Shown here piece after piece: positions 12,745 through 24,518 of a DNA stretch of 59,636 nt. Both the position numbers and the translations under genes were made by a program. Where the stretch lies: positions 1 through 59,636 of IMG/VR virus record IMGVR_UViG_3300011116_000547. The stretch is one strand, 5' to 3'. Position 1 is the first letter of the stretch; every line of letters starts with the position of its first letter. The notes under the pieces are model-generated. The model searched no databases. It was not told the origin of the DNA and was given only the letters and a program-made list of their open reading frames with translations. Origin of the DNA: a virus (Duplodnaviria > Caudoviricetes).

Positions 12745-14238
12745 ATGCTTGATATAGAAAAATTAAAAAAATTTAGAAATATAAATAAACTTACAGACCC
12801 TAAAGTTAGAAAAAAAGCTAAATTAGATTTATTGATGTCCTTTAAAAAAAATAAGGATAAAACTATTCGTTCTGATTTTTTAACTTTTGTAAAATATATT
12901 TGGCCAGATTTTATTGAAGGATCTCATCATAAAACTATTGCAGATAAATTTAATAGATTAAGATCTGGAGAGCTTACAAGATTAATTATCAATATGCCAC
13001 CAAGGCATACTAAATCAGAATTTGCTTCTTACTTTTTACCTGCATGGATGATTGGAAATAATCCTAAATTAAAAATTATTCAAGCAACTCACACAGCAGA
13101 ACTTGCAGTAAGATTCGGTCGTAAAACAAAAAACTTAATTGACTCAGCTGAATACAGAGAAATATTTAATACAAGATTACAAGAAGATTCAAAAGCAGCT
13201 GGACGTTGGGAAACTGATAAAGGTGGTGAATACTTTGCAGTCGGTGTCCAAGGTGCGGTAACCGGTAGAGGTGCTGATTTACTCATTATCGATGATCCAC
13301 ATTCAGAGCAAGATGCAAATTCTTCAACAGCTTTTGATAAAGCATATGAATGGTACACATCAGGACCACGTCAACGATTGCAACCTGGTGGACGTATTGT
13401 TTTAGTTATGACCAGATGGAGTACAAAAGATTTAACTGCACAATTGATCAAGGCTCAAGGAGCAGAAGAGAAAGCTGATAAATGGGAAGTAGTTGAATTT
13501 CCAGCTATCATGCCAAGTGGTAAACCTTGCTGGCCACAATATTGGAAGTTAGAAGATTTATTTGCAGTCAAAGCTTCAGCTGGTGTTTCTAAATGGAATG
13601 CACAATACATGCAAAATCCAACCTCAGAAGAAGGAGCAATTATCAAACGTGAATGGTGGAAAGATTGGGAAGAAGATTATGTACCTGCAATTGAACATGT
13701 TATTCAATCTTATGATACTGCATTTTTAAAAAAAGAAACTGCGGATTATTCAGCGATAACTACTTGGGGCGTGTTCTATCCAGATCAGGACTCTGGTCCA
13801 AATTTAATACTGCTTGATGCTATAAAAAAACGTGTAGAGTTTCCTGAACTAAGGCGCCTGGCTCACGAACAATATATGTATTGGAAACCTGAAACTGTTT
13901 TAGTTGAGGCTAAAGCTTCAGGATTACCTTTAACTTATGAACTTAGACAAATGGGAATACCAGTTGTTAATTATTCACCATCAAAAGGAAATGATAAACA
14001 TGCACGAGTAAATGCGGTAGCTCCTTTATTTGAATCCGGAAAGATATGGGCTCCTAAATCTAAACAATTTGCACAGGAAGTTATTGAAGAATGTGCTGCA
14101 TTTCCACATGGAGATAATGACGATTTAGTAGATTCTATGACCCAAGCTTTAATGAGATTTAGACAAGGTGGGTTGATTTCTCACCCAGAAGACTATAAAG
14201 ATGAGGTTATCCCAAGAGTAAATAGAACTTACTATTAA
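12745..14238 (+). CDS. terL: Terminase large subunit
   Basis: INMPPRHTKS Walker A, LLIIDD Walker B, MTRW coupling motif, QSYDTA and DDLVDS nuclease motifs. Confidence 0.96.
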   Translation: MLDIEKLKKFRNINKLTDPKVRKKAKLDLLMSFKKNKDKTIRSDFLTFVKYIWPDFIEGSHHKTIADKFNRLRSGELTRLIINMPPRHTKSEFASYFLPAWMIGNNPKLKIIQATHTAELAVRFGRKTKNLIDSAEYREIFNTRLQEDSKAAGRWETDKGGEYFAVGVQGAVTGRGADLLIIDDPHSEQDANSSTAFDKAYEWYTSGPRQRLQPGGRIVLVMTRWSTKDLTAQLIKAQGAEEKADKWEVVEFPAIMPSGKPCWPQYWKLEDLFAVKASAGVSKWNAQYMQNPTSEEGAIIKREWWKDWEEDYVPAIEHVIQSYDTAFLKKETADYSAITTWGVFYPDQDSGPNLILLDAIKKRVEFPELRRLAHEQYMYWKPETVLVEAKASGLPLTYELRQMGIPVVNYSPSKGNDKHARVNAVAPLFESGKIWAPKSKQFAQEVIEECAAFPHGDNDDLVDSMTQALMRFRQGGLISHPEDYKDEVIPRVNRTYY

Positions 14239-14239
14239 T

Positions 14240-15181
14240 ATGATTGAGAAAAAAATTAGTTACGAGATTAACATTGAAAAACCAAGTAAGACAAAACCTG
14301 TTAAACAAGGTGGAGTTTTAAATTATTTAGGAAAACAAAAAACAGTTAATGCTCCAGTTAAATGGAGATCATCACCTAAACATCCTATTGCACATCTTTC
14401 CTATATTACAAAAGATGAAGAAAAAATTTTAATAGATTTAAATTTATATGGTTCACTAAAAGGTAAACCCAACAGAGGTCCATTTGGACTTCCATCATTA
14501 CAAGGATCAGGTGGTGGCGCTGGCGGTGGAGACGGAGGCGGCGGTGGAGACGGAGGCGGCGGTGGAGATTCAGGAGCATCAGATAGTGGACCAGGAGGAT
14601 CAGATGATGGAACTGGACATGGGGGACCAGGACCAGGAGATTCAGGAGTATCAGGACCAGGTGGATCAGAAGGATTCGGCACTGACACTGGACCAGGGCC
14701 AGGAGAAGCAGCAGGAATGGGAGGACCATCAGGACCAGGTGGAACAGAAGGATTTAGTACTGACACTGGACCAGGACCAGGTGAGGCAGTTGGAATGGGT
14801 GAACAATCTGGAATTTCTGCAGCAGTAAATGCTGTGAATCAAGCAGTTCAAAATGCTGTAAATCAAGCAGTTCAAAATGCTGTGAATAATCCTGTTGCAA
14901 CAGCTGTTGGAATTATTGGAGGACCTGTTGCCGGAATGGTCGCAAATGCAATTAGCTCTGCTGTAAGTGCTGCTAACAGAGGAGCAACTGGACCAAGTGA
15001 TGATACTCAAGAAACTTCTTCAGTTCAAACTGGACCAGCAACTAGTACATCTACTGATGGAGGAATAACTACATTACCTCAATATGCACCATTATATAAT
15101 CAAGCAACAGGGGATCCTTTACTAGATTCATTAATTGCAAGATACAGAGCTAATATATCTCCTTCTTCTTTTGGAGTATGA
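14240..15181 (+). CDS. Gly/Pro/Asp-rich low-complexity protein, probably virion-internal
   Basis: N-domain HLSYITKDEEKIL..GPFGLPS; GGGGD and GPGG repeats; AVNQAVQN repeats. Confidence 0.75.
   Translation: MIEKKISYEINIEKPSKTKPVKQGGVLNYLGKQKTVNAPVKWRSSPKHPIAHLSYITKDEEKILIDLNLYGSLKGKPNRGPFGLPSLQGSGGGAGGGDGGGGGDGGGGGDSGASDSGPGGSDDGTGHGGPGPGDSGVSGPGGSEGFGTDTGPGPGEAAGMGGPSGPGGTEGFSTDTGPGPGEAVGMGEQSGISAAVNAVNQAVQNAVNQAVQNAVNNPVATAVGIIGGPVAGMVANAISSAVSAANRGATGPSDDTQETSSVQTGPATSTSTDGGITTLPQYAPLYNQATGDPLLDSLIARYRANISPSSFGV
14505..14890 (+). repeat. Coding tandem repeats (GGCGGTGGAGACGGAGGC; 23-codon SGPGG.EGF.TDTGPGPGEA.GMG duplication; AVNQAVQN)
   Basis: Visible in DNA and translation. Confidence 0.85.
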
Positions 15182-15327
15182 TGAAAAAATTAACAACAAC
15201 TATACCACCTAAATCAGGTCCTAACCCACAGGGCTTGAATGTTACGTATAATAAGGTTAAGATAGTAAGTTCGGAGAAATTAAATGGCAACTATAGACAA
15301 GTCACTTCCAAACGAAGTTACAAATAA
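15178..15327 (+). CDS. Small basic protein with PPKSGPNPQGL motif
   Basis: GGAG RBS, ATGA coupling; overlaps portal start. Confidence 0.6.
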   Translation: MMKKLTTTIPPKSGPNPQGLNVTYNKVKIVSSEKLNGNYRQVTSKRSYK

Positions 15328-17749
15328 GATTGAAATAGAGAGTCCAGAAGCTGCAACTGAAGAAATTGTAGAACTTCAAGAATCTATTCCAGATATAGGT
15401 AACACAGAAATTACACCAACAGCAGATGGTGGAGTTGAAATTAATTTTCAACCAGGAGCTTTTAATCAAGGCGAAAGTGTAAATCATTTTGATAATTTAG
15501 CAGAGTTATTACCAGAAAATATTTTAGGACCTTTAGGTTCAGAACTTTATCAAAACTTTGAAGACTATAAAAATTCAAGAAGAGATTGGGAACAAACTTA
15601 TACTCAAGGTTTAGATTTACTTGGATTTAAATATGATCAAAGAACAGAACCATTTCAAGGAGCATCAGGTGCAACTCATCCAGTATTAGCAGAAGCTGTA
15701 ACACAGTTTCAAGCATTAGCTTACAAAGAATTATTACCAGCAGATGGACCAGTTAGAACACAAATAATTGGAAACTCTTCAAGAGAAAAAGAAGATCAAG
15801 CAACTCGTGTTAGAGATTTTATGAACTATCAGATTATGGATGTCATGAAAGAATATGAACCAGAGTTTGATCAAATGTTATTTTATTTACCACTATCAGG
15901 ATCTACATTTAAAAAAGTTTATTATGATGATTTACTTGGTAGAGCTGTTTCAAAATTTGTACCAGCAGAAGATTTAGTAGTTCCTTATGCAGCAACATCA
16001 TTAGATGATGCAGAAGCAATTATGCATGTTATAAAAATTTCTGCAAATGAATTAAGAAAACAACAAGTAGCTGGATTTTACAAAGATATAGATTTATTGC
16101 CAAGTGATGATTCTGTCACTGAAGCAGATGATGTAAAATCAAAAGAAAGAGAAATCGAAGGAGTCACTAAATCAGGTAATGAAGATATCTTTACTTTAAT
16201 TGAGTGTCATGTAAACTTGGATCTCGAGGGCTTTGAAGATCGTGATCCCAACGGGGAAATGACTGGAATTAAACTTCCTTATATCGTGACGATAGAAGAA
16301 GGCTCTCGTGAAATTTTATCTATTCGTAGAAATTACGAAATAGGTGATCCTAAAAAAAATAAAATTCAATATTTTGTTCATTTTAAATTTTTACCTGGTT
16401 TAGGATTTTATGGATTTGGATTAATTCATATGATTGGTGGTTTATCAAGAACAGCCACATCAGCATTAAGACAATTAATTGATGCAGGAACTTTATCTAA
16501 TTTACCTGCAGGATTTAAAATGCGTGGTATTAGAATTAGAGATGATGCTCAATCTATTCAACCTGGTGAATGGAGAGATGTAGATGCTCCTGGAGGAAAC
16601 TTAAGAGATGCATTTATGACTTTACCATACAAAGAACCGTCACAAACTTTATTAGCATTAATGGGGGTCGTGGTTCAAGCAGGTCAGCGCTTTGCTTCAA
16701 TTGCTGACATGCAAGTAGGGGATGGGAATCAGCAAGCAGCAGTGGGCACGACCGTGGCTTTGCTGGAAAGAGGAAGCAGAACAATGTCTGCAATTCACAA
16801 AAGATTATACTCATCACTTAAATTAGAATTTAAATTATTATCAAGAGTATTTAAATTATATTTACCTGAAGAATATCCATACGATGTTGTAGGTGGAGAA
16901 AAAAATATTAAACAAGCAGACTTTGATGATAGAATAGATATTGTTCCAGTTGCTGATCCAAATATATTTTCTCAAACACAAAGAATTAGTTTAGCACAAA
17001 CTGAATTACAACTTGCTCAATCTAATCCACAAATTCATAACTTATATGAAATTTACAGAAAAATGTATGAAGCATTAGGTGTAAAAGATATTGATAAAAT
17101 TTTAATTCAACCTGCAAAACCAACTCCTAAAGATCCGGCATTAGAACATATTGATGCATTAGGTGGACAACCTTTCCAAGCATTTAGAGGACAAGATCAT
17201 AGAGCACATATCACTGCGCATTTAAATTTTATGTCAACTAATATTGCAAAAAATAATCCAATGATAATGGGATCATTAGAGAAAAATATTTTTGAACATA
17301 TTTCTTTAATGGCTTTAGAACAAGTTGAATTAGAATTTGCACAAGAGTTACAACAAATACAAATTTTATCTCAAAATCCTCAAGCAGTACAAGATCCTGC
17401 AATTCAAGCACAGGTTCAAGAGTTTCAAATGAAATTAGAATCTAGAAAAGCAATCTTAATAGCTGAGATGATGGATGAATTTATGAAGGAAGAGAGAAAA
17501 ATAACTTCTCAATTTGATAATGATCCTATTGCTGCATTAAAATCTAGAGAACTTGACCTACAAGCTCAAGAAAATAGTAGAAAAAAACAAGAGGGACAAG
17601 AAAGAATCAATCTAGACAAGATGAGAGCTATGATGAATCAGATGAATACACAAGAAAAACTGCAACAAAATGAAGATTTAGCTGAATTAAGGGCTGCAAC
17701 ATCTATTGCAAAACAGCAATTTTCTAATATGAATAAGAAAATACAATAA
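15284..17749 (+). CDS. Portal protein
   Basis: 821 aa after terL; HPVLAEAVTQFQA, GSTFKKVYYD, FYGFGLIH; long C-terminal coiled-coil barrel. Confidence 0.9.
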   Translation: MATIDKSLPNEVTNKIEIESPEAATEEIVELQESIPDIGNTEITPTADGGVEINFQPGAFNQGESVNHFDNLAELLPENILGPLGSELYQNFEDYKNSRRDWEQTYTQGLDLLGFKYDQRTEPFQGASGATHPVLAEAVTQFQALAYKELLPADGPVRTQIIGNSSREKEDQATRVRDFMNYQIMDVMKEYEPEFDQMLFYLPLSGSTFKKVYYDDLLGRAVSKFVPAEDLVVPYAATSLDDAEAIMHVIKISANELRKQQVAGFYKDIDLLPSDDSVTEADDVKSKEREIEGVTKSGNEDIFTLIECHVNLDLEGFEDRDPNGEMTGIKLPYIVTIEEGSREILSIRRNYEIGDPKKNKIQYFVHFKFLPGLGFYGFGLIHMIGGLSRTATSALRQLIDAGTLSNLPAGFKMRGIRIRDDAQSIQPGEWRDVDAPGGNLRDAFMTLPYKEPSQTLLALMGVVVQAGQRFASIADMQVGDGNQQAAVGTTVALLERGSRTMSAIHKRLYSSLKLEFKLLSRVFKLYLPEEYPYDVVGGEKNIKQADFDDRIDIVPVADPNIFSQTQRISLAQTELQLAQSNPQIHNLYEIYRKMYEALGVKDIDKILIQPAKPTPKDPALEHIDALGGQPFQAFRGQDHRAHITAHLNFMSTNIAKNNPMIMGSLEKNIFEHISLMALEQVELEFAQELQQIQILSQNPQAVQDPAIQAQVQEFQMKLESRKAILIAEMMDEFMKEERKITSQFDNDPIAALKSRELDLQAQENSRKKQEGQERINLDKMRAMMNQMNTQEKLQQNEDLAELRAATSIAKQQFSNMNKKIQ

Positions 17750-17781
17750 TTATTGTTAAATAATAAAAAAGGAGTATAAAC

Positions 17782-18153
17782 ATGGTTATGAAAATGACAA
17801 AATCACAAAAAAAGATTGGTAAAGTAATGAGAGAGTTCAAAAAAGGTGAACTTAACATTGGTCAATCAAAACAAAAAGTAAAAAATCCTAAACAAGCAAT
17901 TGCTATTGCATTGTCGGAAGCTGGAAAAAGCAGAAAACAAATGGCAGTAGGCGGATTAGCTAATGCAACAAGAACTTTTACTGCTGATTCAAAAGCAAAA
18001 GAAGTAAATCATTCAAAATTTACTGATGCTCAAGGTTATTTAGTTGGCGGAGTAGATGTTGAAATGTCAAATCCTCAAGAAACTCAAGTTCAAGAAGTAC
18101 AAGGTCAAGGAAGCGTCCTTTCAGAAAAAAGAAGATCAGCAAAGTGGTATTAA
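17782..18153 (+). CDS. Small basic head-region protein (KVMREFKKG...KQAIAIALSEAG)
   Basis: AAGGAG RBS; carries xxGG and C-terminal QGQG..KWY motifs. Confidence 0.75.
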   Translation: MVMKMTKSQKKIGKVMREFKKGELNIGQSKQKVKNPKQAIAIALSEAGKSRKQMAVGGLANATRTFTADSKAKEVNHSKFTDAQGYLVGGVDVEMSNPQETQVQEVQGQGSVLSEKRRSAKWY

Positions 18154-18156
18154 GTT

Positions 18157-18585
18157 ATGATTCAAATGCTAGGAGCTGTTGCACCTCTTGCAAAAATCCT
18201 ATTTAATACAATTGAAAAGTCCGTTCCTGATAAAGATCTTCAAGAAAAATTAAAAGCACAATTACAAACACAACTACTACAATCTAATACACAAGAATTA
18301 CAAGCTGCAGCTAAAATAGTCGAAGCTGAAGCAAAGGCGGGATGGTTTGCATCATCTTGGAGACCTTTACTAATGTATGTCTTAATATTTATTTTAGTTT
18401 GGAACTATGTTATAGGACCAGTTATAAAAGTATTCACAGGAGCTGTTATCTCCTTTGAATTACCTGGTGACGTTTGGACTTTATTAAACGTTGGATTAGG
18501 TGGTTATGTGGTGGGTCGTTCTGCTGAATCTGTTGCAAGAACTTTAGCTAATAGACCTGTAAATAAAGAACAAGAAAATGGATAA
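18157..18585 (+). CDS. Holin, GTA 3TM-like
   Basis: PDKD..KLK, AEA...SSWRP, TM segments, LGGYVVGRSAE. Confidence 0.75.
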   Translation: MIQMLGAVAPLAKILFNTIEKSVPDKDLQEKLKAQLQTQLLQSNTQELQAAAKIVEAEAKAGWFASSWRPLLMYVLIFILVWNYVIGPVIKVFTGAVISFELPGDVWTLLNVGLGGYVVGRSAESVARTLANRPVNKEQENG

Positions 18586-18594
18586 GGAGTTAAC

Positions 18595-18807
18595 ATGAGA
18601 AACGACTACGGAATAAGACCAAGAGCAAAATTAAAAAAAGGTAGTTTTCCAGATTTAAATAAAGATGGAAAAATTACTAAAGCCGATATTTTAAAAGGAA
18701 GAAAAGTTCCTGGTTTTAAAAAAGGTGGTATGTCAAAAAAAGCCGATATGATGACAAAAGATATGTCTGAAAAGAAAAAAGGCAAAATGATGAAGAGTAA
18801 AAGATAA
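18595..18807 (+). CDS. Small basic protein with EF-hand-like loop
   Basis: DLNKDGKITKAD; FKKGG; AAGGAG RBS. Confidence 0.7.
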   Translation: MRNDYGIRPRAKLKKGSFPDLNKDGKITKADILKGRKVPGFKKGGMSKKADMMTKDMSEKKKGKMMKSKR

Positions 18808-19013
18808 TGGGTGATATTGCACTTAGAGGACAAGGAAGAGCTCTTTTAAAGAAAGGTAACAAAGCCATAGATATGTCTGAAGAACATGAGAGTATGGAAT
18901 CCGAAGCTGAAGAAGCTGAGGAGTATGAAATGGAAGAAGAAGGTTATGAAGAAACCGAATCAGGCAAAATGGTAAAGAAGAAGAAAAAAAATAAAAAAAA
19001 GAAGAAAAAATAA
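18807..19013 (+). CDS. Small protein: MGDIALRGQGRA leader, acidic block, poly-Lys tail
   Basis: TAATG coupling; N-terminus shared with 20004. Confidence 0.7.
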   Translation: MGDIALRGQGRALLKKGNKAIDMSEEHESMESEAEEAEEYEMEEEGYEETESGKMVKKKKKNKKKKKK

Positions 19014-19226
19014 ATGGGTAAATCTAAAAGAAAACAATTTATTGATTTAGCTAGAAAAGGTGGAACAAGACAAGATTTTATTGATCTTGCCGAAGAACTT
19101 GAAGTTGGTGGAACAAAAGAAGATGAAGTTGTTGTTCCAATACAACCAGCTGAACCAAAACCTCCAGGTAAAGCTAAAGGTGGATTGATTAGAGGTTTAC
19201 CAAAAATTGCATTGAGAGGTTATTAA
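19014..19226 (+). CDS. Small head-region protein
   Basis: KAKGGLIRG..IALRGY. Confidence 0.7.
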   Translation: MGKSKRKQFIDLARKGGTRQDFIDLAEELEVGGTKEDEVVVPIQPAEPKPPGKAKGGLIRGLPKIALRGY

Positions 19227-19477
19227 TGGCTAAACTTTGTCCAAAAGGAAAAGCTGCTGCAAAAAGAAAATTTAAGGTCTATCCGAGTGCCTATGCAAAT
19301 ATGTATGCATCAGCAGTTTGTTCTGGAAAAATAGTTCCTGGTGGACGTAAGAAAAAAGCAGAAGGTGGAAGTATTTCTCAGGAAAGAAAAATGGTATCTA
19401 ATTATAAACAAGGTGGAATAGCTAAAGGTTGCGGGGCAGTTTTAGAAAATAGAAGAAAAGTAACTAAAAAATATTAA
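19226..19477 (+). CDS. Small basic head-region protein
   Basis: AAKRKFKVYPSAYAN; AEGG, YKQGG, KGCGAV..TKKY. Confidence 0.72.
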   Translation: MAKLCPKGKAAAKRKFKVYPSAYANMYASAVCSGKIVPGGRKKKAEGGSISQERKMVSNYKQGGIAKGCGAVLENRRKVTKKY

Positions 19478-19478
19478 T

Positions 19479-19757
19479 ATGGCACAAAACGGTCTTAGAA
19501 AATGGGTTGCGGAAAAATGGGTTGATATTGGATCAAGACGTAAAGATGGTTCATTTGCTCCATGTGGAAGATCTAAAGGAGAAAAAAGAAAAGGTTATCC
19601 AAAATGTGTGCCACTAGCAAAAGCTAGAGCAATGTCAGAATCTCAAAGAAGATCTGCTGTTCAAAGAAAAAGAGCTGCAGGAAATACTGGACCTAAACCT
19701 ACTAATGTTAAAACTTTTGCAAATAGAAAAGATATGAGATCAGGAGGATTAGTATAA
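19479..19757 (+). CDS. Small basic head-region protein
   Basis: LRKWVAEKWVDI..CGRS..YPKCVP; ends MRSGGLV. Confidence 0.75.
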   Translation: MAQNGLRKWVAEKWVDIGSRRKDGSFAPCGRSKGEKRKGYPKCVPLAKARAMSESQRRSAVQRKRAAGNTGPKPTNVKTFANRKDMRSGGLV

Positions 19758-20002
19758 TGGCTGGTGATAAATATTACAAAGCTGAAAAAGCAAGACAAAA
19801 AAAATTTAGAGAAGCTGAAAAAGAGATGGATGAAAATTATAAAAAAGTTCGTAGAGAAGAATCTGAATTTGAATATTTAAATTCATTATTTCCAGAAGAT
19901 TCAACACGAGAATATAATCCAGTTGAGCATTATAAAGATGGTGGATTAGTAAGTAGAGGACAAGGAAGAGTTATTAAAAGTAAAAAAACTAAAATGTATT
20001 AA
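19757..20002 (+). CDS. Small head-region protein
   Basis: YKDGGLVSRGQGRVIKSKKTKMY. Confidence 0.72.
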   Translation: MAGDKYYKAEKARQKKFREAEKEMDENYKKVRREESEFEYLNSLFPEDSTREYNPVEHYKDGGLVSRGQGRVIKSKKTKMY

Positions 20003-20003
20003 T

Positions 20004-20330
20004 ATGGGTGATATTGCATTAAGAGGACAAGGTAGAGCAATGCTTGCATCAGGATCAACTCCAGCATGGCAACGTAAAGAAGGTAAATCTGAATCCGGTG
20101 GATTAAATAGAAAAGGTATTGCATCTTATAGAGCTGCTAATCCTGGATCTAAATTATCAATGGCAGTTACAACAAAGCCTTCTAAATTAAAACCAGGTTC
20201 TAAATCTGCTAAAAGAAGAAAATCATTTTGTGCTAGAATGAAAGGCATGAAAAAAAGATTAACATCAGCTAAAACTGCAAGAGATCCGAATTCAAGAATT
20301 AATAAATCTCTACGTAAGTGGAATTGTTAA
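20004..20330 (+). CDS. Small very basic head-region protein
   Basis: AWQRKEGK..GGLN.KG, RRKSFCARM, SRINKSLRKWNC. Confidence 0.75.
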   Translation: MGDIALRGQGRAMLASGSTPAWQRKEGKSESGGLNRKGIASYRAANPGSKLSMAVTTKPSKLKPGSKSAKRRKSFCARMKGMKKRLTSAKTARDPNSRINKSLRKWNC

Positions 20331-20353
20331 TATAACCAACAAAGGAGAAAGAT

Positions 20354-20605
20354 ATGGATGCAGTCACGTTTTTAAGTAAATTACAGAAGTTTATTAGGGA
20401 TCAATACCAAGGCATTGGTGATTCTATGATATCTGGTAATGTTGACAGTATGGAAAAATACAAGTATATGCAAGGACAGGCAAATGCCTACCAAACAGTA
20501 ATTCAGGAAATCTCTAACCTGCTAAATGAAGGAGCAAAAAAAGATGATAAAGGAAACGTTATCGACCTCGGAAAAGGAAGTTCCAAAGATAAACCTAGGT
20601 CTTGA
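20354..20605 (+). CDS. Conserved hypothetical protein preceding GroES
   Basis: AAGGAG RBS; SG.VDSMEKYKYMQG. Confidence 0.75.
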   Translation: MDAVTFLSKLQKFIRDQYQGIGDSMISGNVDSMEKYKYMQGQANAYQTVIQEISNLLNEGAKKDDKGNVIDLGKGSSKDKPRS

Positions 20606-21011
20606 AGAAAAGTATAAGGAACAAAAAGTAGTAGAAGATAAAACAGTAAGAGCAGAAAATATTACTGAATCTTTAATTGATAGTTTACCTCAACCGTCTG
20701 GTTGGAGACTATTAGTTTTACCATTTACACCTAAAGATAAAACTTCAGGTGGATTAATCATATCACAAGAATCTTTAGACAAAGCACGAATCGCAACTAA
20801 TTGCGGTTATGTTTTAAAGATTGGACCATTAGCTTATTTGGATAAAGAAAAATATCCAACAGGCCCATGGTGCAAGGAAAAAGATTGGGTGATCTTTGCC
20901 AGATACGCTGGTTCAAGACTTCCAATCGAAGGCGGTGAAGTTCGTCTATTAAATGACGATGAAGTCTTAGGGACAATTAAAAATCCTGAAGATGTACTTC
21001 ACTATATATAA
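20544..21011 (+). CDS. groES: GroES-like co-chaperonin with N-terminal extension
   Basis: LPQPSGWRLLV..TSGGLII..VLKIGP..DWVIFARYAG..LLNDDEVLG. Confidence 0.85.
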   Translation: MIKETLSTSEKEVPKINLGLEEKYKEQKVVEDKTVRAENITESLIDSLPQPSGWRLLVLPFTPKDKTSGGLIISQESLDKARIATNCGYVLKIGPLAYLDKEKYPTGPWCKEKDWVIFARYAGSRLPIEGGEVRLLNDDEVLGTIKNPEDVLHYI

Positions 21012-21027
21012 ACCATAGGAGAAAACT

Positions 21028-22038
21028 ATGCCAGAAGACAAAAACGCAAAGACTGTTGACATAGATACATCAGGTCCAGGAGCCGAGGTCGAATTAGACG
21101 TAAAGCAACCTGAATCAAACGAGATAGAGGTATCAAATGAAAAGGACAACGTTAAGTCCATTGACACAGTTGCGGAATCTAATGAGCAACCTGTTGTTAA
21201 GGCAGATAAACAAGAAACAGAAAACAAGGACCAAGGAACAGAAATAGCGTCCGAAGATACAGATAACAAGAAAGAATTAGAAGACTATAGTGAAGGTGTT
21301 AAAAAGAGAATTGCAAAATTAACCAAGAAAATGCGTGAAGCTGAAAGACAGCGTGAAGCTGCCATTGAGTATGCACGTAAAATTCAGGTTGAAAAAGATT
21401 CTCTAGCTGGAAGACTTACCAAATTAGATACAGGTTATGTATCTGAAATGGAAAGAAGAATTAAATCATCCATGGAATCAGCTGCTGCTAAATTAGCACA
21501 AGCTAGAGTTGATGGGGATTTAAAAGCTGAAATCGCCGCACAAACTGAAATATCTAAATTAGGATATGAAGAAGCAAGACTTCTTGATCTTAAATCTAGA
21601 CAATCAGAAGCAAAGGAAGTTGAACCAAAAATTCAACTAAATCAACAACAAGCTGTTCAACAAGAACAACCTATAACTCCAGACCCTAAAGCTCAAAATT
21701 GGGCTCAAAAAAATACGTGGTTTGGACAAGATGAGGCAATGACGTACACAGCCTTTGGATTACACAAAAAACTTGTGGAAGAAGAAGGATATGATGCTCA
21801 AAGTGACGAATATTATGCAGAAATTGATAAAAGAATAAGACTTGAATTTCCGCATAAATTTGCTACAACATCACAAACGATAACTGCAAAACCAGTTCAA
21901 AATGTAGCTTCGGCTAATAGAAGTGGAAAAAACAGTAATCGCAAAACTGTGAGACTCACGCCTTCTCAAGTAGCTATTGCTAAAAAATTAGGTGTGCCAC
22001 TTGAAGAATATGCGAAACATATAATCACGAAGGAGTAA
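21028..22038 (+). CDS. Capsid scaffolding protein
   Basis: Acidic N-terminus, coiled coil, C-terminal LTPSQVAIAKKLGVPLEEYAK; upstream of MCP. Confidence 0.75.
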   Translation: MPEDKNAKTVDIDTSGPGAEVELDVKQPESNEIEVSNEKDNVKSIDTVAESNEQPVVKADKQETENKDQGTEIASEDTDNKKELEDYSEGVKKRIAKLTKKMREAERQREAAIEYARKIQVEKDSLAGRLTKLDTGYVSEMERRIKSSMESAAAKLAQARVDGDLKAEIAAQTEISKLGYEEARLLDLKSRQSEAKEVEPKIQLNQQQAVQQEQPITPDPKAQNWAQKNTWFGQDEAMTYTAFGLHKKLVEEEGYDAQSDEYYAEIDKRIRLEFPHKFATTSQTITAKPVQNVASANRSGKNSNRKTVRLTPSQVAIAKKLGVPLEEYAKHIITKE

Positions 22039-22509
22039 ATGCATATGGAAAAAAACAAAAATATTAAGACCCCTCGTGCGAGCCAAACTAGGACTACTGA
22101 AAAGAGACCTACAACTTGGACTCCACCGTCATCTTTAGATGCACCGCCAGCACCAGATGGTTTTAGACATAGATGGATTCGTACTGAAGTTTTAGGCTTC
22201 GACGATACCAAAAATATGACTGGTAAAATGAGATCAGGATGGGAGCTTGTAAGAGCTGACGAATATCCTGGATCCATTTACCCTGAAATCAAAGATGGTA
22301 AATATGCGGGTGTTATCGGAGTTGGTGGCCTTGTGTTGGCAAGGATACCGGAAGAGATCGCAAAATCTCGTGAAGCTTACTTTAGGAAACAAATAGAAGC
22401 TCGTGAGGAAGCAATTGAAAACGATCTTTATAAGGATCAACACAAAAGTATGCCTATCAATAGTGAGAGGCAGACTCGTGTAACTTTTGGTGGTACGAAC
22501 AAAAAGTAA
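22039..22509 (+). CDS. Conserved head-module protein
   Basis: WTPPSSLDAP..GFRHRWIR..GWELV..GGLVLARIP. Confidence 0.75.
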   Translation: MHMEKNKNIKTPRASQTRTTEKRPTTWTPPSSLDAPPAPDGFRHRWIRTEVLGFDDTKNMTGKMRSGWELVRADEYPGSIYPEIKDGKYAGVIGVGGLVLARIPEEIAKSREAYFRKQIEAREEAIENDLYKDQHKSMPINSERQTRVTFGGTNKK

Positions 22510-22560
22510 TTTTTTGGCAATACCAACGAAGTAAAAATAAACTTAAACAAGGAAAAAACT

Positions 22561-23130
22561 ATGGCTAATAGAAGCTCAGTAGGCTTCGGTCTTAGACCGA
22601 TTGGCAAAGTTGGTCAAAATAGAGACGCCCAAGGTTTAACTGAATACCTAGTAAGTGATAGTCCAACTATCATTTATTTTAACGATGCTGTAAAAGCTAC
22701 AAACGAAGGAACAATCGCTGTAGCTGGTGGAACAGATAAGTTATTAGGATCACTAAACGGTGCGTTCTATACTGACCCAACAACTCAAAAACCGACATGG
22801 AGGAATTATGTACCTTCGGTTGCAGCGACAGATATCGTTGCATTCGTAAGTGATGATCCTTATGAAAGATTTGAGATCAGATCAAATAACACAGGCGCTT
22901 CAGCAACTAGCGATATCTTCAACAATGCAGATATCACTTATTTAGCTGGGGACTCAGCAAACTACGTATCAAGAAGCAGATTGAATGATGCTACTTTAAG
23001 CACAAATTCAGCTCAACTTCAGATACTTGGTTCAACAAAAGATACTGGTGACAATAATATCACTCAATCACACGTTGTGTGGGTTGTGAGAATTAATGAA
23101 CATCAGTTAACATCTACAACAGGAGTATAA
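22561..23130 (+). CDS. Capsid decoration/cement-type protein
   Basis: MAN..FGLRP; beta-rich; immediately upstream of MCP. Confidence 0.65.
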   Translation: MANRSSVGFGLRPIGKVGQNRDAQGLTEYLVSDSPTIIYFNDAVKATNEGTIAVAGGTDKLLGSLNGAFYTDPTTQKPTWRNYVPSVAATDIVAFVSDDPYERFEIRSNNTGASATSDIFNNADITYLAGDSANYVSRSRLNDATLSTNSAQLQILGSTKDTGDNNITQSHVVWVVRINEHQLTSTTGV

Positions 23131-23134
23131 GAAT

Positions 23135-24040
23135 ATGGCTATCTCAAGAGGACAACTAGTTAAAGAACTAGAACCAGGATTGAATGCTTTATTCGGCCTG
23201 GAGTACAAACGTTATGAAAATCAACATCTAGAAATCTTTGATGTAGAAACTTCTGACAGAGCTTTTGAAGAAGAAGTAATGTTATCAGGTTTCGCAAATG
23301 CTCAAATTAAACCAGAAGGTTCTGGCGTTACATTTGACAATGCTCAAGAAACATTCACAGCTAGATACACTCATAACACTATAGCACTTGCTTTCTCAAT
23401 CACTGAAGAAGCGATTGAAGACAACTTGTATGACAGACTTGCATCTCGTTATACAAAAGCATTAGCAAGATCTATGGCAAACACTAAGCAGGTAACGGCT
23501 GCTAACGTATTAAACAATGCGTTTTCAAGCTCTTATCCAGGTGGAGATGGTCAACCTTTATTAGACCAAGCTCACCCTACTATTGCTGGTTCATTTAGAA
23601 ATGAACTTGCAACTGCTGCTGACTTAAACGAAACTTCATTAGAACAGTCATTGATTGATATCAATGCGTTTACTGATGAACGTGGTTTAAAGATTGCTGC
23701 AAGAGGTGTTAAATTAATTATTCCAAGTGAATTACAATTCACAGCGGAAAGATTAATGGCAACTCAAGGTAGAACTGGTACTGCTAATAACGATATCAAT
23801 GCAATCAAATCTATGGGAATGATTCCACAAGGTTATGTGGTTAACAATTTCTTAACTGATTCTGATGCATTCTTTATCAAAACTGACGTTCCAAACGGTA
23901 TGAAGATGTTCGTAAGAGCAGCTATCAAAACGTCTATGGAAGGTGATTTTGATACTGGTAACGTTAGATACAAAGCTAGAGAAAGATACAGCTTCGGCTG
24001 GTCTGACCCTAGAGGTTTGTTTGGCTCACCAGGTGCTTAA
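23135..24040 (+). CDS. Major capsid protein (Mu gpT-like family)
   Basis: MAISRGQLVKELEPGLNALFGLEY..ITEEAIEDNLY..RERYSFGWSDPRG; biased high-expression codons. Confidence 0.9.
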   Translation: MAISRGQLVKELEPGLNALFGLEYKRYENQHLEIFDVETSDRAFEEEVMLSGFANAQIKPEGSGVTFDNAQETFTARYTHNTIALAFSITEEAIEDNLYDRLASRYTKALARSMANTKQVTAANVLNNAFSSSYPGGDGQPLLDQAHPTIAGSFRNELATAADLNETSLEQSLIDINAFTDERGLKIAARGVKLIIPSELQFTAERLMATQGRTGTANNDINAIKSMGMIPQGYVVNNFLTDSDAFFIKTDVPNGMKMFVRAAIKTSMEGDFDTGNVRYKARERYSFGWSDPRGLFGSPGA

Positions 24041-24058
24041 TATATAAGCATTTTTTAT

Positions 24059-24089
24059 TTAATGGGGTGGGTATATCTCACCCCATTAA
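24059..24089 (+). terminator. Stem-loop after MCP
   Basis: TTAATGGGGTG...CACCCCATTAA; no strong U-tract downstream. Confidence 0.6.
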
Positions 24090-24109
24090 TGTGTTAGAAA
24101 GAATGAATT

Positions 24110-24352
24110 ATGACAAAACTGTTTCAAGTAAAGATTAGAGCTTATGGTCACATGGCTGATTTTAAGATTGAAGCAGAAGATAGTGCAGAAAGTATAGAGA
24201 GAGCTATCCTTGACAAAATAGGAAAAAAAGGTATATTACTAAAAGACAGCATGAGATCCTTTGCTAAGGATAAATGCTGGATAACCTATGAGGAGGTTGT
24301 AGATGATATCAGTTCAAGACCTTTACAAGAAGAAAAGGTCATTAGAACTTGA
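24110..24352 (+). CDS. Hypothetical protein
   Basis: AGAAAG RBS. Confidence 0.65.
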   Translation: MTKLFQVKIRAYGHMADFKIEAEDSAESIERAILDKIGKKGILLKDSMRSFAKDKCWITYEEVVDDISSRPLQEEKVIRT

Positions 24353-24518
24353 TTGGGAGCAACACTACATTCAAGAGGGTAAATACACTCTTGATATGGT
24401 TAAGATTGACGAAAAGATAAAAGACGTCATTAACCAGATTAAAATGTCTGAAGCAGAAATTGCTCACAGACAAATTAAAGTAGAATTAGCTGCTCCTGAA
24501 TTTTCTGTAGCTAGCTAA
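24303..24518 (+). CDS. Hypothetical coiled-coil protein
   Basis: GGAGG RBS. Confidence 0.7.
   Translation: MISVQDLYKKKRSLELDWEQHYIQEGKYTLDMVKIDEKIKDVINQIKMSEAEIAHRQIKVELAAPEFSVAS

Follow-up and report, generated by a model that had tools for sequence, protein, structure and literature searches.

A portable N-terminal tag on small head-operon proteins of HTVC023P-type pelagiphages and its possible role in loading the procapsid

Why do two unrelated small proteins encoded near the head genes of one phage begin with exactly the same peptide? The question is raised by the IMG/VR virus record IMGVR_UViG_3300011116_000547, whose whole stretch of 59,636 nucleotides was analysed and is called the window below. 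The window represents the complete genome of an HTVC023P-type pelagiphage and carries direct terminal repeats. The closest cultured phages are Pelagibacter phage HTVC027P and phage 023Pt_psg01, and the host of the relatives is an alphaproteobacterium. Two open reading frames (ORFs) of the window, located at positions 18807–19013 and 20004–20330, open with the same 12 residues, MGDIALRGQGRA. The analysis indicates that this 12-mer is part of a longer N-terminal tag, which might serve for the docking of small proteins in the assembling head.

The initial annotation had reported an identical 12-residue peptide on two proteins, differing between the copies at synonymous positions only, and the comparison of the two sites bore this out. 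Both strings translate into MGDIALRGQGRA. The 36-bp DNA segments encoding them differ at four bases (CTT/TTA, GGA/GGT, GCT/GCA), i.e., at 4/36 positions with zero amino-acid changes, and the probability that four random changes are all silent is 0.0044. The Nei–Gojobori method (S = 8.5 and N = 24.5 sites) booked 3.0 synonymous and 1.0 nonsynonymous differences, the latter arising solely from averaging over both possible paths of the two-step Leu change. Outside the peptide, identity of the two copies was 14/40 in the upstream 40 nucleotides, 9/36 in codons 13–24 and 12/36 in codons 25–36, with a random expectation of 0.30; in codons 13–24 the proportions of synonymous and nonsynonymous differences were 0.82 and 0.73, respectively. 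The back-translated pattern with up to 3 mismatches matched just these two sites of the window (0.00 expected from 100 shuffles).

The bodies behind the two copies are unrelated, one being acidic with a poly-Lys tail and the other strongly basic, as had been annotated. The first ORF (18807..19013, plus strand, 68 amino acids, aa) consists of tag copy 1, MGDIALRGQGRALLKKGN (18807..18860, plus strand; residues 1–18, 31.3 bits with a hidden Markov model (HMM) of the leader), an acidic module (DMSEEHESMESEAEEAEE…) and the poly-Lys tail. Its product has an acidic centre and contains 18 D+E and 17 K+R residues (isoelectric point, pI, 5.9). No Pfam or PHROG family matched this ORF; its homologues with the same tag were found in the loci L014, L020, L035, L055 and others. 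The second ORF (20004..20330, plus strand, 108 aa) comprises tag copy 2, MGDIALRGQGRAMLASGS (20004..20057, plus strand; residues 1–18, leader HMM 33.5 bits), a short linker and a DUF6321 domain, and its product contains 28 K+R and 4 D+E residues (pI 11.75). The match to DUF6321 (PF19846; 64.2 bits against a cut-off of 28.5, E 1.7e-17) spans residues 27–106, and the tag thus lies outside the domain. PHROG matches put the DUF6321 domain at the C-terminal end of profiles 99 to 928 positions long. A further ORF (18595..18807, plus strand, 70 aa) encodes an EF-hand/dockerin-like module (FPDLNKDGKIT…) with weak Pfam EF-hand/dockerin matches below the cut-off. In the window its tag is truncated (MRNDYGIRPRAKLKKGS vs. 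MAGLGKQMRGNGIARVGLAKGS in the locus L007) and the gene has its own Shine–Dalgarno sequence, while in relatives the EF-hand-like body bears the tag.

In order to see how the peptide varies, a viral contig collection was scanned for back-translated GDIALRGQGRA, which gave at least 60 loci and at least 61 copies. Met directly precedes all 61 exact copies listed, and these copies head at least three unrelated bodies, namely DUF6321, an acidic body followed by diverse tails, and the “GLWYNI” body. In a sample of 64 exact copies of the 12-mer, which was selected for the exact peptide, the copies are encoded by 23 DNA haplotypes with synonymous variation at all 11 non-Met codons. Purifying selection therefore acts on the tag peptide and not on the DNA, and the annotated view of selection on the peptide was supported.

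These data bear on two explanations that assign no function to the peptide as such. According to the first, the identity is a by-product of recombination: the copies would stem from a recent neutral duplication or from gene conversion, or would mark a boundary element at the DNA level. The tags are indeed placed at gene starts of a mosaic, recombining cluster. However, this explanation is contradicted by silent-only divergence at four positions between flanks of random identity, by the 23 haplotypes for one peptide and by the extent of the tag family, which spans capsid divergence down to 74% identity; a conserved RNA structure is likewise opposed by the silent variation. Moreover, the similarity between tags is not significantly higher inside one genome than across genomes (0.452 vs. 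0.423; 512/5000 shuffles as high). Concerted evolution of tags inside one genome was rejected on this ground, and the identity of the window copies is best read as retention of the commonest form. The probability of the recombination by-product is close to nil. According to the second explanation, conservation of the first codons serves to adjust initiation or early elongation in translationally coupled small genes. Both tagged window genes lack a Shine–Dalgarno sequence and start at or beside the upstream stop codon (the start of ORF 18807–19013 overlaps the stop of the preceding ORF, ATAATG), which is in line with such an effect. Nevertheless, codon choice is free to vary under a conserved amino-acid sequence, the tag extends over about 20 residues, among them invariant glycines, and it is absent from equally coupled genes of tag-negative relatives, so that a translation effect is considered highly improbable.

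Since the sample of exact peptides is biased, loci were also fetched by the DUF6321 body alone, and the best 80 of 595 DUF6321 loci confirmed among the first 600 stretches were used. In this sample, the DUF6321 body is 80–99% identical to that of the window and the N-terminus is highly variable: some proteins are leaderless (MAKT|PAWQ…), some are fusions reaching 727 aa, and the leader variants include MGDISLRGRGIE…, MGDVALRGRGRT…, MINSRGMGRAY… and MAGLGIHTRGCGKA…. Among 32 DUF6321 leaders, M1, G8 and G10 are invariant, and conservation reaches at least 90% at G2, D3, I4, L6, R7 and R11. Between genomes, the 12-mer varies at positions 5, 9, 11 and 12. It represents a single allele within a broader family of tags of about 20 aa with the consensus GxGIxLRGxG(IA)Rx4-5GG, in which a conserved Gly-Gly closes the tag ahead of the body. 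The forms MGDI[AS]LRGxG[RI]…KGG, MAGLG[IK]QxRGxGIA[RK]…KGG and M[AST]RGVGIAKRGFG[RK]AL… can be aligned as one family, and intermediates between them exist, such as MGDISLRGRGIVRVGLAKGG.

The position of the tag is strictly terminal. Applied to 4370 ORFs, the leader HMM gave 145 matches of 8 bits or more, including 136 N-terminal, 8 internal and 1 C-terminal; most of the internal matches are artefacts of an upstream in-frame ATG. The tag as an internal polyprotein linker was rejected, as just 8/145 matches are internal and the cyanophage fusion proteins described below do not contain it. A profile built from a body-balanced alignment of 42 N-termini was then searched against 1.84 billion representative proteins. 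At E ≤ 0.001 it found 68 matches in proteins of 26–182 aa, some of these gene calls being plainly truncated or frameshifted, and all 68 start at residues 1–4. Among cellular genomes (one per species, 185,579 species), three matches to the pattern were found, one of which encodes the peptide; it lies on a phage-like 1.7-kb contig (35% GC) in a metagenome-assembled genome, with the tag on both bodies. The exact peptide was found on no cellular protein of this set.

The tag heads 108 distinct proteins (142 ORFs) that represent 23 combinations of about eight mini-modules, assigned by regular expressions made for this analysis. Together with the N-terminal position of 68/68 profile matches, this agrees with the portable leader proposed in the initial annotation; to call it a “leader” that is cleaved or that targets the protein goes further, and such a role can only be assumed. 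DUF6321 alone accounts for 40 of the tagged proteins, and the other bodies are acidic, acidic+DUF6496, EF-hand-like, EF-hand-like+DUF6496, GLW, Tat-signal-like, etc. Single-linkage clustering of the bodies merged nearly everything and was replaced by motif tagging, because the bodies themselves are mosaics. A look-up of the DUF6321 protein in the ESM Atlas returned DUF6321 clusters only. The 68 profile matches contain further bodies, e.g., an RTX-like Ca-binding repeat protein (P0036, 182 aa), in which the tag precedes hemolysin-type Gly/Asp-rich repeats; it is the largest and most unusual body. In the loci L051 (4690–4992) and L060 (minus strand, ~4251), a twin-arginine-signal-like segment (…SRRGFLG[MV]…AAAAP…) follows directly after the tag, which is odd for a signal of this type, since it is not N-terminal. 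In addition, tandem-tag ORFs of 39–58 aa, as well as some longer ORFs, contain two or three tag units and little else, and end with …RGTKFKGIF (L011, minus strand, ~522; L042, plus strand, ~1049; L063, minus strand, ~1405; P0024, P0056 and P0068).

The distribution of the tag among genomes is restricted. The leader is present on DUF6321 in 17 of the 39 loci with HTVC023P-type head genes and in none of the 41 loci without them. The initial annotation had held that homologues mostly lacking the leader would indicate a recent neutral duplication. Literally, the homologues outside the family do lack it (0/41), but this reflects a lineage-specific tag and not a neutral duplication. Within the family, the tag is all-or-none per genome: no tagged ORF of any kind was found in the 21 loci with a leaderless DUF6321, several of which span the whole portal-to-capsid interval. 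When every ORF of all loci was scanned, two or more leader-like ORFs were found in 46 of 145 sources, and at many loci the MGDI and MAGLG forms occur together in one genome. On a capsid-protein tree of 33 rows (18 tag-positive and 15 tag-negative), tag status is strongly clustered: it changes three times, and 0/500 shuffles gave a number as low. At least two of the three changes are forced by supported branches, and the tag-positive phages do not form one clade.

Modeling of the tagged DUF6321 protein using AlphaFold2, with an alignment of tagged DUF6321 proteins, assigned residues 2–4 and 6–34 no secondary structure and a predicted local distance difference test score (pLDDT) below 50; moderate confidence was reached only by the C-terminal helices. 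According to this model, the tag would be a flexible arm located outside the fold. All these characteristics (the strict terminal position, portability, purifying selection, disorder, the genome-wide set and the site in the head operon) point to a short linear motif with a common partner. A subset of HTVC023P-type pelagiphages equips a shuffling set of small proteins, which are highly charged and largely unstructured, with the tag of about 20 residues. It is proposed that the flexible N-terminal arm would bind a single common partner of the assembling head, and the docked tag would load whichever small module follows into the procapsid as an internal protein, by a logic like that of the T4 capsid-targeting sequence (CTS) and the encapsulin targeting peptides. 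Here we infer the docking, the docking partner, the packaging of the proteins and any later removal of the tag. That the tag is a docking or targeting signal loading small charged proteins into the procapsid is the favoured but tentative reading, whose chance of being right is put somewhat below even.

Tags of a similar kind were found at the opposite end of neighbouring proteins. Four small window ORFs have conserved C-terminal tails of about 16–21 aa with the pattern GG-h-h-x-[RK]-G-x-G-…-basic-…-[YF] followed by the stop codon, and three of them, GGLVSRGQGRVIKSKKTKMY, GGIAKGCGAVLENRRKVTKKY and VQGQGSVLSEKRRSAKWY, have the same core as the N-terminal tag, the fourth being KGGLIRGLPKIALRGY. 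The tail VQGQGSVLSEKRRSAKWY (18097..18150, plus strand) ends the DUF6496 ORF (Pfam; 17782–18153, plus strand) and is kept in many homologous ORFs (…V[QG]GQG[SN][IV]L[SP]EKKRSAKWY). The tail KGGLIRGLPKIALRGY (19176..19223, plus strand) ends ORF 19014–19226, eight homologues of which finish with …KGGLI[KR]G.PK[IV]A.RGY. The tail GGIAKGCGAVLENRRKVTKKY (19412..19474, plus strand) belongs to ORF 19226–19477, which encodes a YPSAYA module (phrog_27331); 75 ORFs homologous to the latter were found, most of them with the ending GG[IV]AKGCG.V[LM]ENRRKVTKKY. The tail GGLVSRGQGRVIKSKKTKMY (19940..19999, plus strand) of ORF 19757–20002 has the RGQGR core seen in the N-terminal tag (leader HMM 8.7 bits) and is kept in 20 homologous ORFs. 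The tails are also exchanged between bodies: GGLVSRGQG… is attached directly to a DUF5872-like body in two ORFs and GGIAKGCG… to the other body in two ORFs. Similar C-terminal tails are present in tag-negative relatives as well. The related RGxG tail may do the same job as the N-terminal tag from the opposite end. In a more specific version of the docking model, RGxG tags of either terminus would attach in an encapsulin-style manner to the scaffold or to the inside of the HK97-fold procapsid, with an exchangeable repertoire of small charged proteins that would be loaded and would travel with the DNA. In so specific a form, the model is rather unlikely to be correct.

The charge of these proteins suggests another explanation, namely that the Arg/Gly-rich unit and the basic tails are arms binding the AT-rich phage DNA, and that the proteins are packaged counter-ions or condensers. 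It is consistent with a pI above 9 for 8 of the 10 small proteins encoded between the portal and GroES genes, with the RGxG[R/K] core of the unit, with the Lys/Arg-rich C-terminal tails and with the tiny proteins built solely of tandem units. However, a DNA-binding motif does not need the extreme N-terminus, where all 68 profile matches are found; the MAGLGIQxRGxGIA form contains few basic residues, and an acidic protein with a pI of 5.9 is also tagged. Such a nucleic-acid-binding arm is therefore regarded as unlikely.

Packaging of the tagged proteins is suggested by relatives of their bodies. Cyanomyovirus proteins of 427–517 aa fuse the DUF5872-like, YPSAYA and DUF6321 modules and are labelled as virion or structural proteins. 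The fusions were found in L003 (1241–2794; S-SCSM1_29) and L004 (1505–2788; RN05-S), where the module order differs from that in the window and the tag is absent. Separate genes in the window versus fused ones in cyanomyoviruses clearly exemplify how small phage modules undergo gene fission or fusion. Virion proteins of S-SCSM1 were identified by mass spectrometry on CsCl-purified virions (PMC9602691).

Several observations weigh against the proposed loading of the procapsid. Packaging in the HTVC023P-type group is assumed on the basis of homology of the bodies to the cyanophage fusion proteins, and the virion status of SSCSM1_29 (ORF 29) rests on its GenBank product label. Alignment columns separating tag-positive from tag-negative genomes at a level of 0.9 or more numbered 0/307 in the capsid protein, 0/168 in the conserved head-module protein p156 and 1/423 in the scaffold-like protein, and thus none of the three proteins shows signs of being a receptor that co-evolves with the tag. 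The occurrence of two tag forms in one genome demands either a tolerant receptor or two roles, and if the tag served cargo purely, tiny ORFs consisting of tandem tags only would be unexpected. The resemblance of the tag to encapsulin peptides comprises a few residues of a short motif and has zero statistical weight. Partners were also sought by gene content, among those ORFs of the window for which the tag-negative HTVC027P and 023Pt have no homologue. The 313-aa ORF found in this way (14240–15181) was rejected, as it is absent from many tag-positive loci with ample upstream sequence.

Discriminating columns gave no convincing signal in the whole set of portal, GroES, scaffold, p156, p189 and capsid proteins, with no power for the portal protein (3 negative rows). 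Prediction of a complex of the capsid protein, the scaffold-like protein and residues 1–40 of the tagged DUF6321 protein resulted in a score of 0.00; it was run without controls and is uninformative on binding. A few columns of the GroES-like protein do split tag-positive from tag-negative genomes. GroES is of interest because of a further possibility, namely that the tag mimics a co-chaperonin's mobile loop, binds host GroEL and ties the proteins to GroES-dependent capsid folding. We take the tag to resemble the glycine/hydrophobic mobile loop of GroES. The small-ORF cluster directly abuts the GroES-like gene of the phage, which belongs to the 13-gene core genome of HTVC023P-type phages (PMC9599517, a paper with 80 complete genomes of this type). 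On the other hand, tag-negative relatives keep the GroES gene, and the discriminating columns are located only in the N-terminal stretch that overlaps the upstream ORF, with 6 negative rows. Recruitment of the chaperonin is thus very unlikely.

If the tag is removed during assembly, it could instead be a cleavable pro-peptide, i.e., a site recognised and cut either by a protease of the host or by one of the phage that has escaped recognition, with a parallel in phage 80alpha. This explanation overlaps partly with the docking model, because the T4 targeting sequence is also cleaved. The strict N-terminal position of the tag and the conserved Gly-Gly at its end before the body are what would be expected of a pro-peptide. 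Against this, S78 and S49 prohead proteases were not found in the complete genome by searches whose positive controls worked, and S77 and Mu-like proteases were not found by searches run without a positive control. The p156 protein was considered as a hidden protease and rejected: its AlphaFold2 model (mean pLDDT 72) gave 0 matches at E ≤ 0.001 in a search of PDB structures and has no recognisable fold. The absence of the exact peptide from cellular proteins (185,579 species, one genome each) also argues against a pro-peptide. The site of the T4 prohead protease (gp21-type) is [L/I]-x-E; neither the 12-mer nor the MAGLG… form contains Glu, hence they have no such site. The tag also has no hydrophobic stretch, lipobox Cys or RRxFL, unlike Sec, Tat or lipoprotein signal peptides. 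A cleavable pro-peptide is regarded as unlikely.

Returning to the tag itself, its genomic surroundings correspond to a head operon. Terminase, portal and tail genes are all encoded in the window genome. Ten tightly packed small ORFs occupy positions 17782–20605, with the portal gene (15284..17749, plus strand; phrog_1216, E 3.9e-82) as the upstream boundary and the gene of a GroES-like co-chaperonin (20526..21011, plus strand; PF00166, E 1.6e-7; phrog_3188) as the downstream one. Several products of the small ORFs are known only as DUFs or PHROGs (DUF6496, GTA-holin-like three-transmembrane (3TM) protein, phrog_27331, DUF5872-like and DUF6321). A 92-aa DUF5872-like ORF (19479..19757, plus strand; phrog_23735) of this cluster ends with …MRSGGLV. 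The GTA-holin-like 3TM protein (18157–18585; PF11351, phrog_3427 “holin”) has its gene within the head-morphogenesis cluster right after the portal region, an odd site for lysis functions; in HTVC027P and 023Pt, the corresponding position is taken by another transmembrane protein. The last small ORF (83 aa, 20354–20605) precedes the GroES-like ORF, which has an N-terminal extension of about 55 aa; the first 80 nucleotides of the latter overlap the 83-aa ORF, and its true start may therefore be further downstream. The genes of a scaffold-like protein (336 aa, 21028..22038, plus strand; phrog_28737, with a weak match to the head scaffolding phrog_8865) and two unknown proteins follow. The 156-aa p156 (22039–22509; phrog_36003) shows 35–99% identity over 43 rows. 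Then comes the gene of the HK97-fold major capsid protein (23135..24040, plus strand; PF25209 Phage_capsid_4, E 2.8e-13; Mu-like gpT, E 2.4e-7; phrog_371). A scan of positions 15000–24500 revealed no promoters above shuffle expectation and no convincing plus-strand terminator inside the small-ORF cluster.

The terminase–portal interval of the window (12745–17749) is hypervariable in comparison with HTVC027P gp40–gp43 and 023Pt URG13083–13086. In the window it contains the 313-aa ORF mentioned above as a single ORF without a Pfam or PHROG match, a homologue of which is absent from most related loci, whereas HTVC027P and 023Pt have two large genes in this interval (roughly 480–890 aa by coordinates).

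No description of the tag was found in the available passages of literature on HTVC023P-type phages (PMC12753301, PMC10149686, a bioRxiv preprint and PMC9599517), the DUFs, capsid targeting, and shared N-termini or ejection proteins. Portable terminal targeting tags on phage head proteins as such are already known. The novelty lies in the sequence family, in the phages that carry it, in a maturation protease being apparently absent and in the pairing of N- and C-terminal versions. Pelagiphages of this group are abundant, and the majority of their genes have no annotation, among them every small gene in the interval from portal to capsid. The tag offers a first organising principle for the small head-operon genes, in which one functional class can be recognised by sequence, and the peptide itself is a direct experimental handle. 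If the tag is a signal for capsid loading, the T4 logic of a targeting sequence plus variable cargo would extend to an unrelated, protease-less podovirus lineage, phage head assembly would be linked to the loading of encapsulin cargo, and a natural tag for packaging foreign proteins in marine phage capsids would be available. Should it prove to be something else, whether an arm for DNA, a hook for the chaperonin or a pro-peptide, an undescribed family of short linear motifs would remain.

A comparison with known systems indicated both similarities and differences. The internal proteins of phage T4 are diverse and share only the CTS, which directs them into the scaffolding core (PMC3012670). 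In IPI, IPII and IPIII, a short N-terminal peptide is the sole common part of unrelated small proteins of one phage; in the same way, the pelagiphage tag is common to two bodies in the window and to 23 module combinations, and is N-terminal in 68/68 profile matches. The bodies behind it are also diverse, small and mostly basic. However, the pelagiphage is podovirus-like and not a T4-like myovirus, and no S77 protease was detected in its genome by a search lacking a positive control.

The motif on the capsid and scaffold proteins of phage 80alpha is N-terminal, is shared with host L27 and is cleaved by the host protease Prp; it also occurs on other proteins in related phages, and the scaffold leader is required for assembly (PMC5744158). 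As in the pelagiphage, one identical N-terminal motif is found on non-homologous head proteins. In contrast, the motif of 80alpha is a copy of the Firmicutes L27 extension with cleavage at F|A, while the pelagiphage tag has no such site and the host of the relatives is an alphaproteobacterium. The exact peptide of the tag was found on no cellular protein of the 185,579 species.

Encapsulin targeting peptides (GGDLGIRK, GSLGIGSLR and GSLxIGSLK) are short, contain Gly, hydrophobic and basic residues, bind to the interior of an HK97-fold shell, and are terminal, placed on flexible linkers and portable between cargos (PMC10960027). The tag is likewise terminal, rich in Gly, hydrophobic and basic residues, predicted to be disordered, portable, and present in N- and C-terminal versions, although Family 1 peptides are usually C-terminal and the pelagiphage tag is N-terminal. 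Encapsulin cargo peptides are encoded beside the gene of an HK97-fold shell and bind its interior P-domain; in the pelagiphage, an HK97-fold capsid gene is located 3 kb downstream of the tag. Nonetheless, the pelagiphage shell is no cellular nanocompartment, as it packages DNA with a portal, a terminase and a separate scaffold.

Finally, the cyanomyovirus fusion proteins differ from the window proteins in having no tag, in line with 0/41 tagged DUF6321 genes outside the HTVC023P-type family. The modules themselves are shared: the tagged bodies come from the DUF6321, DUF5872 and DUF6496 families, and the same modules are fused in the S-SCSM1 and RN05-S proteins.

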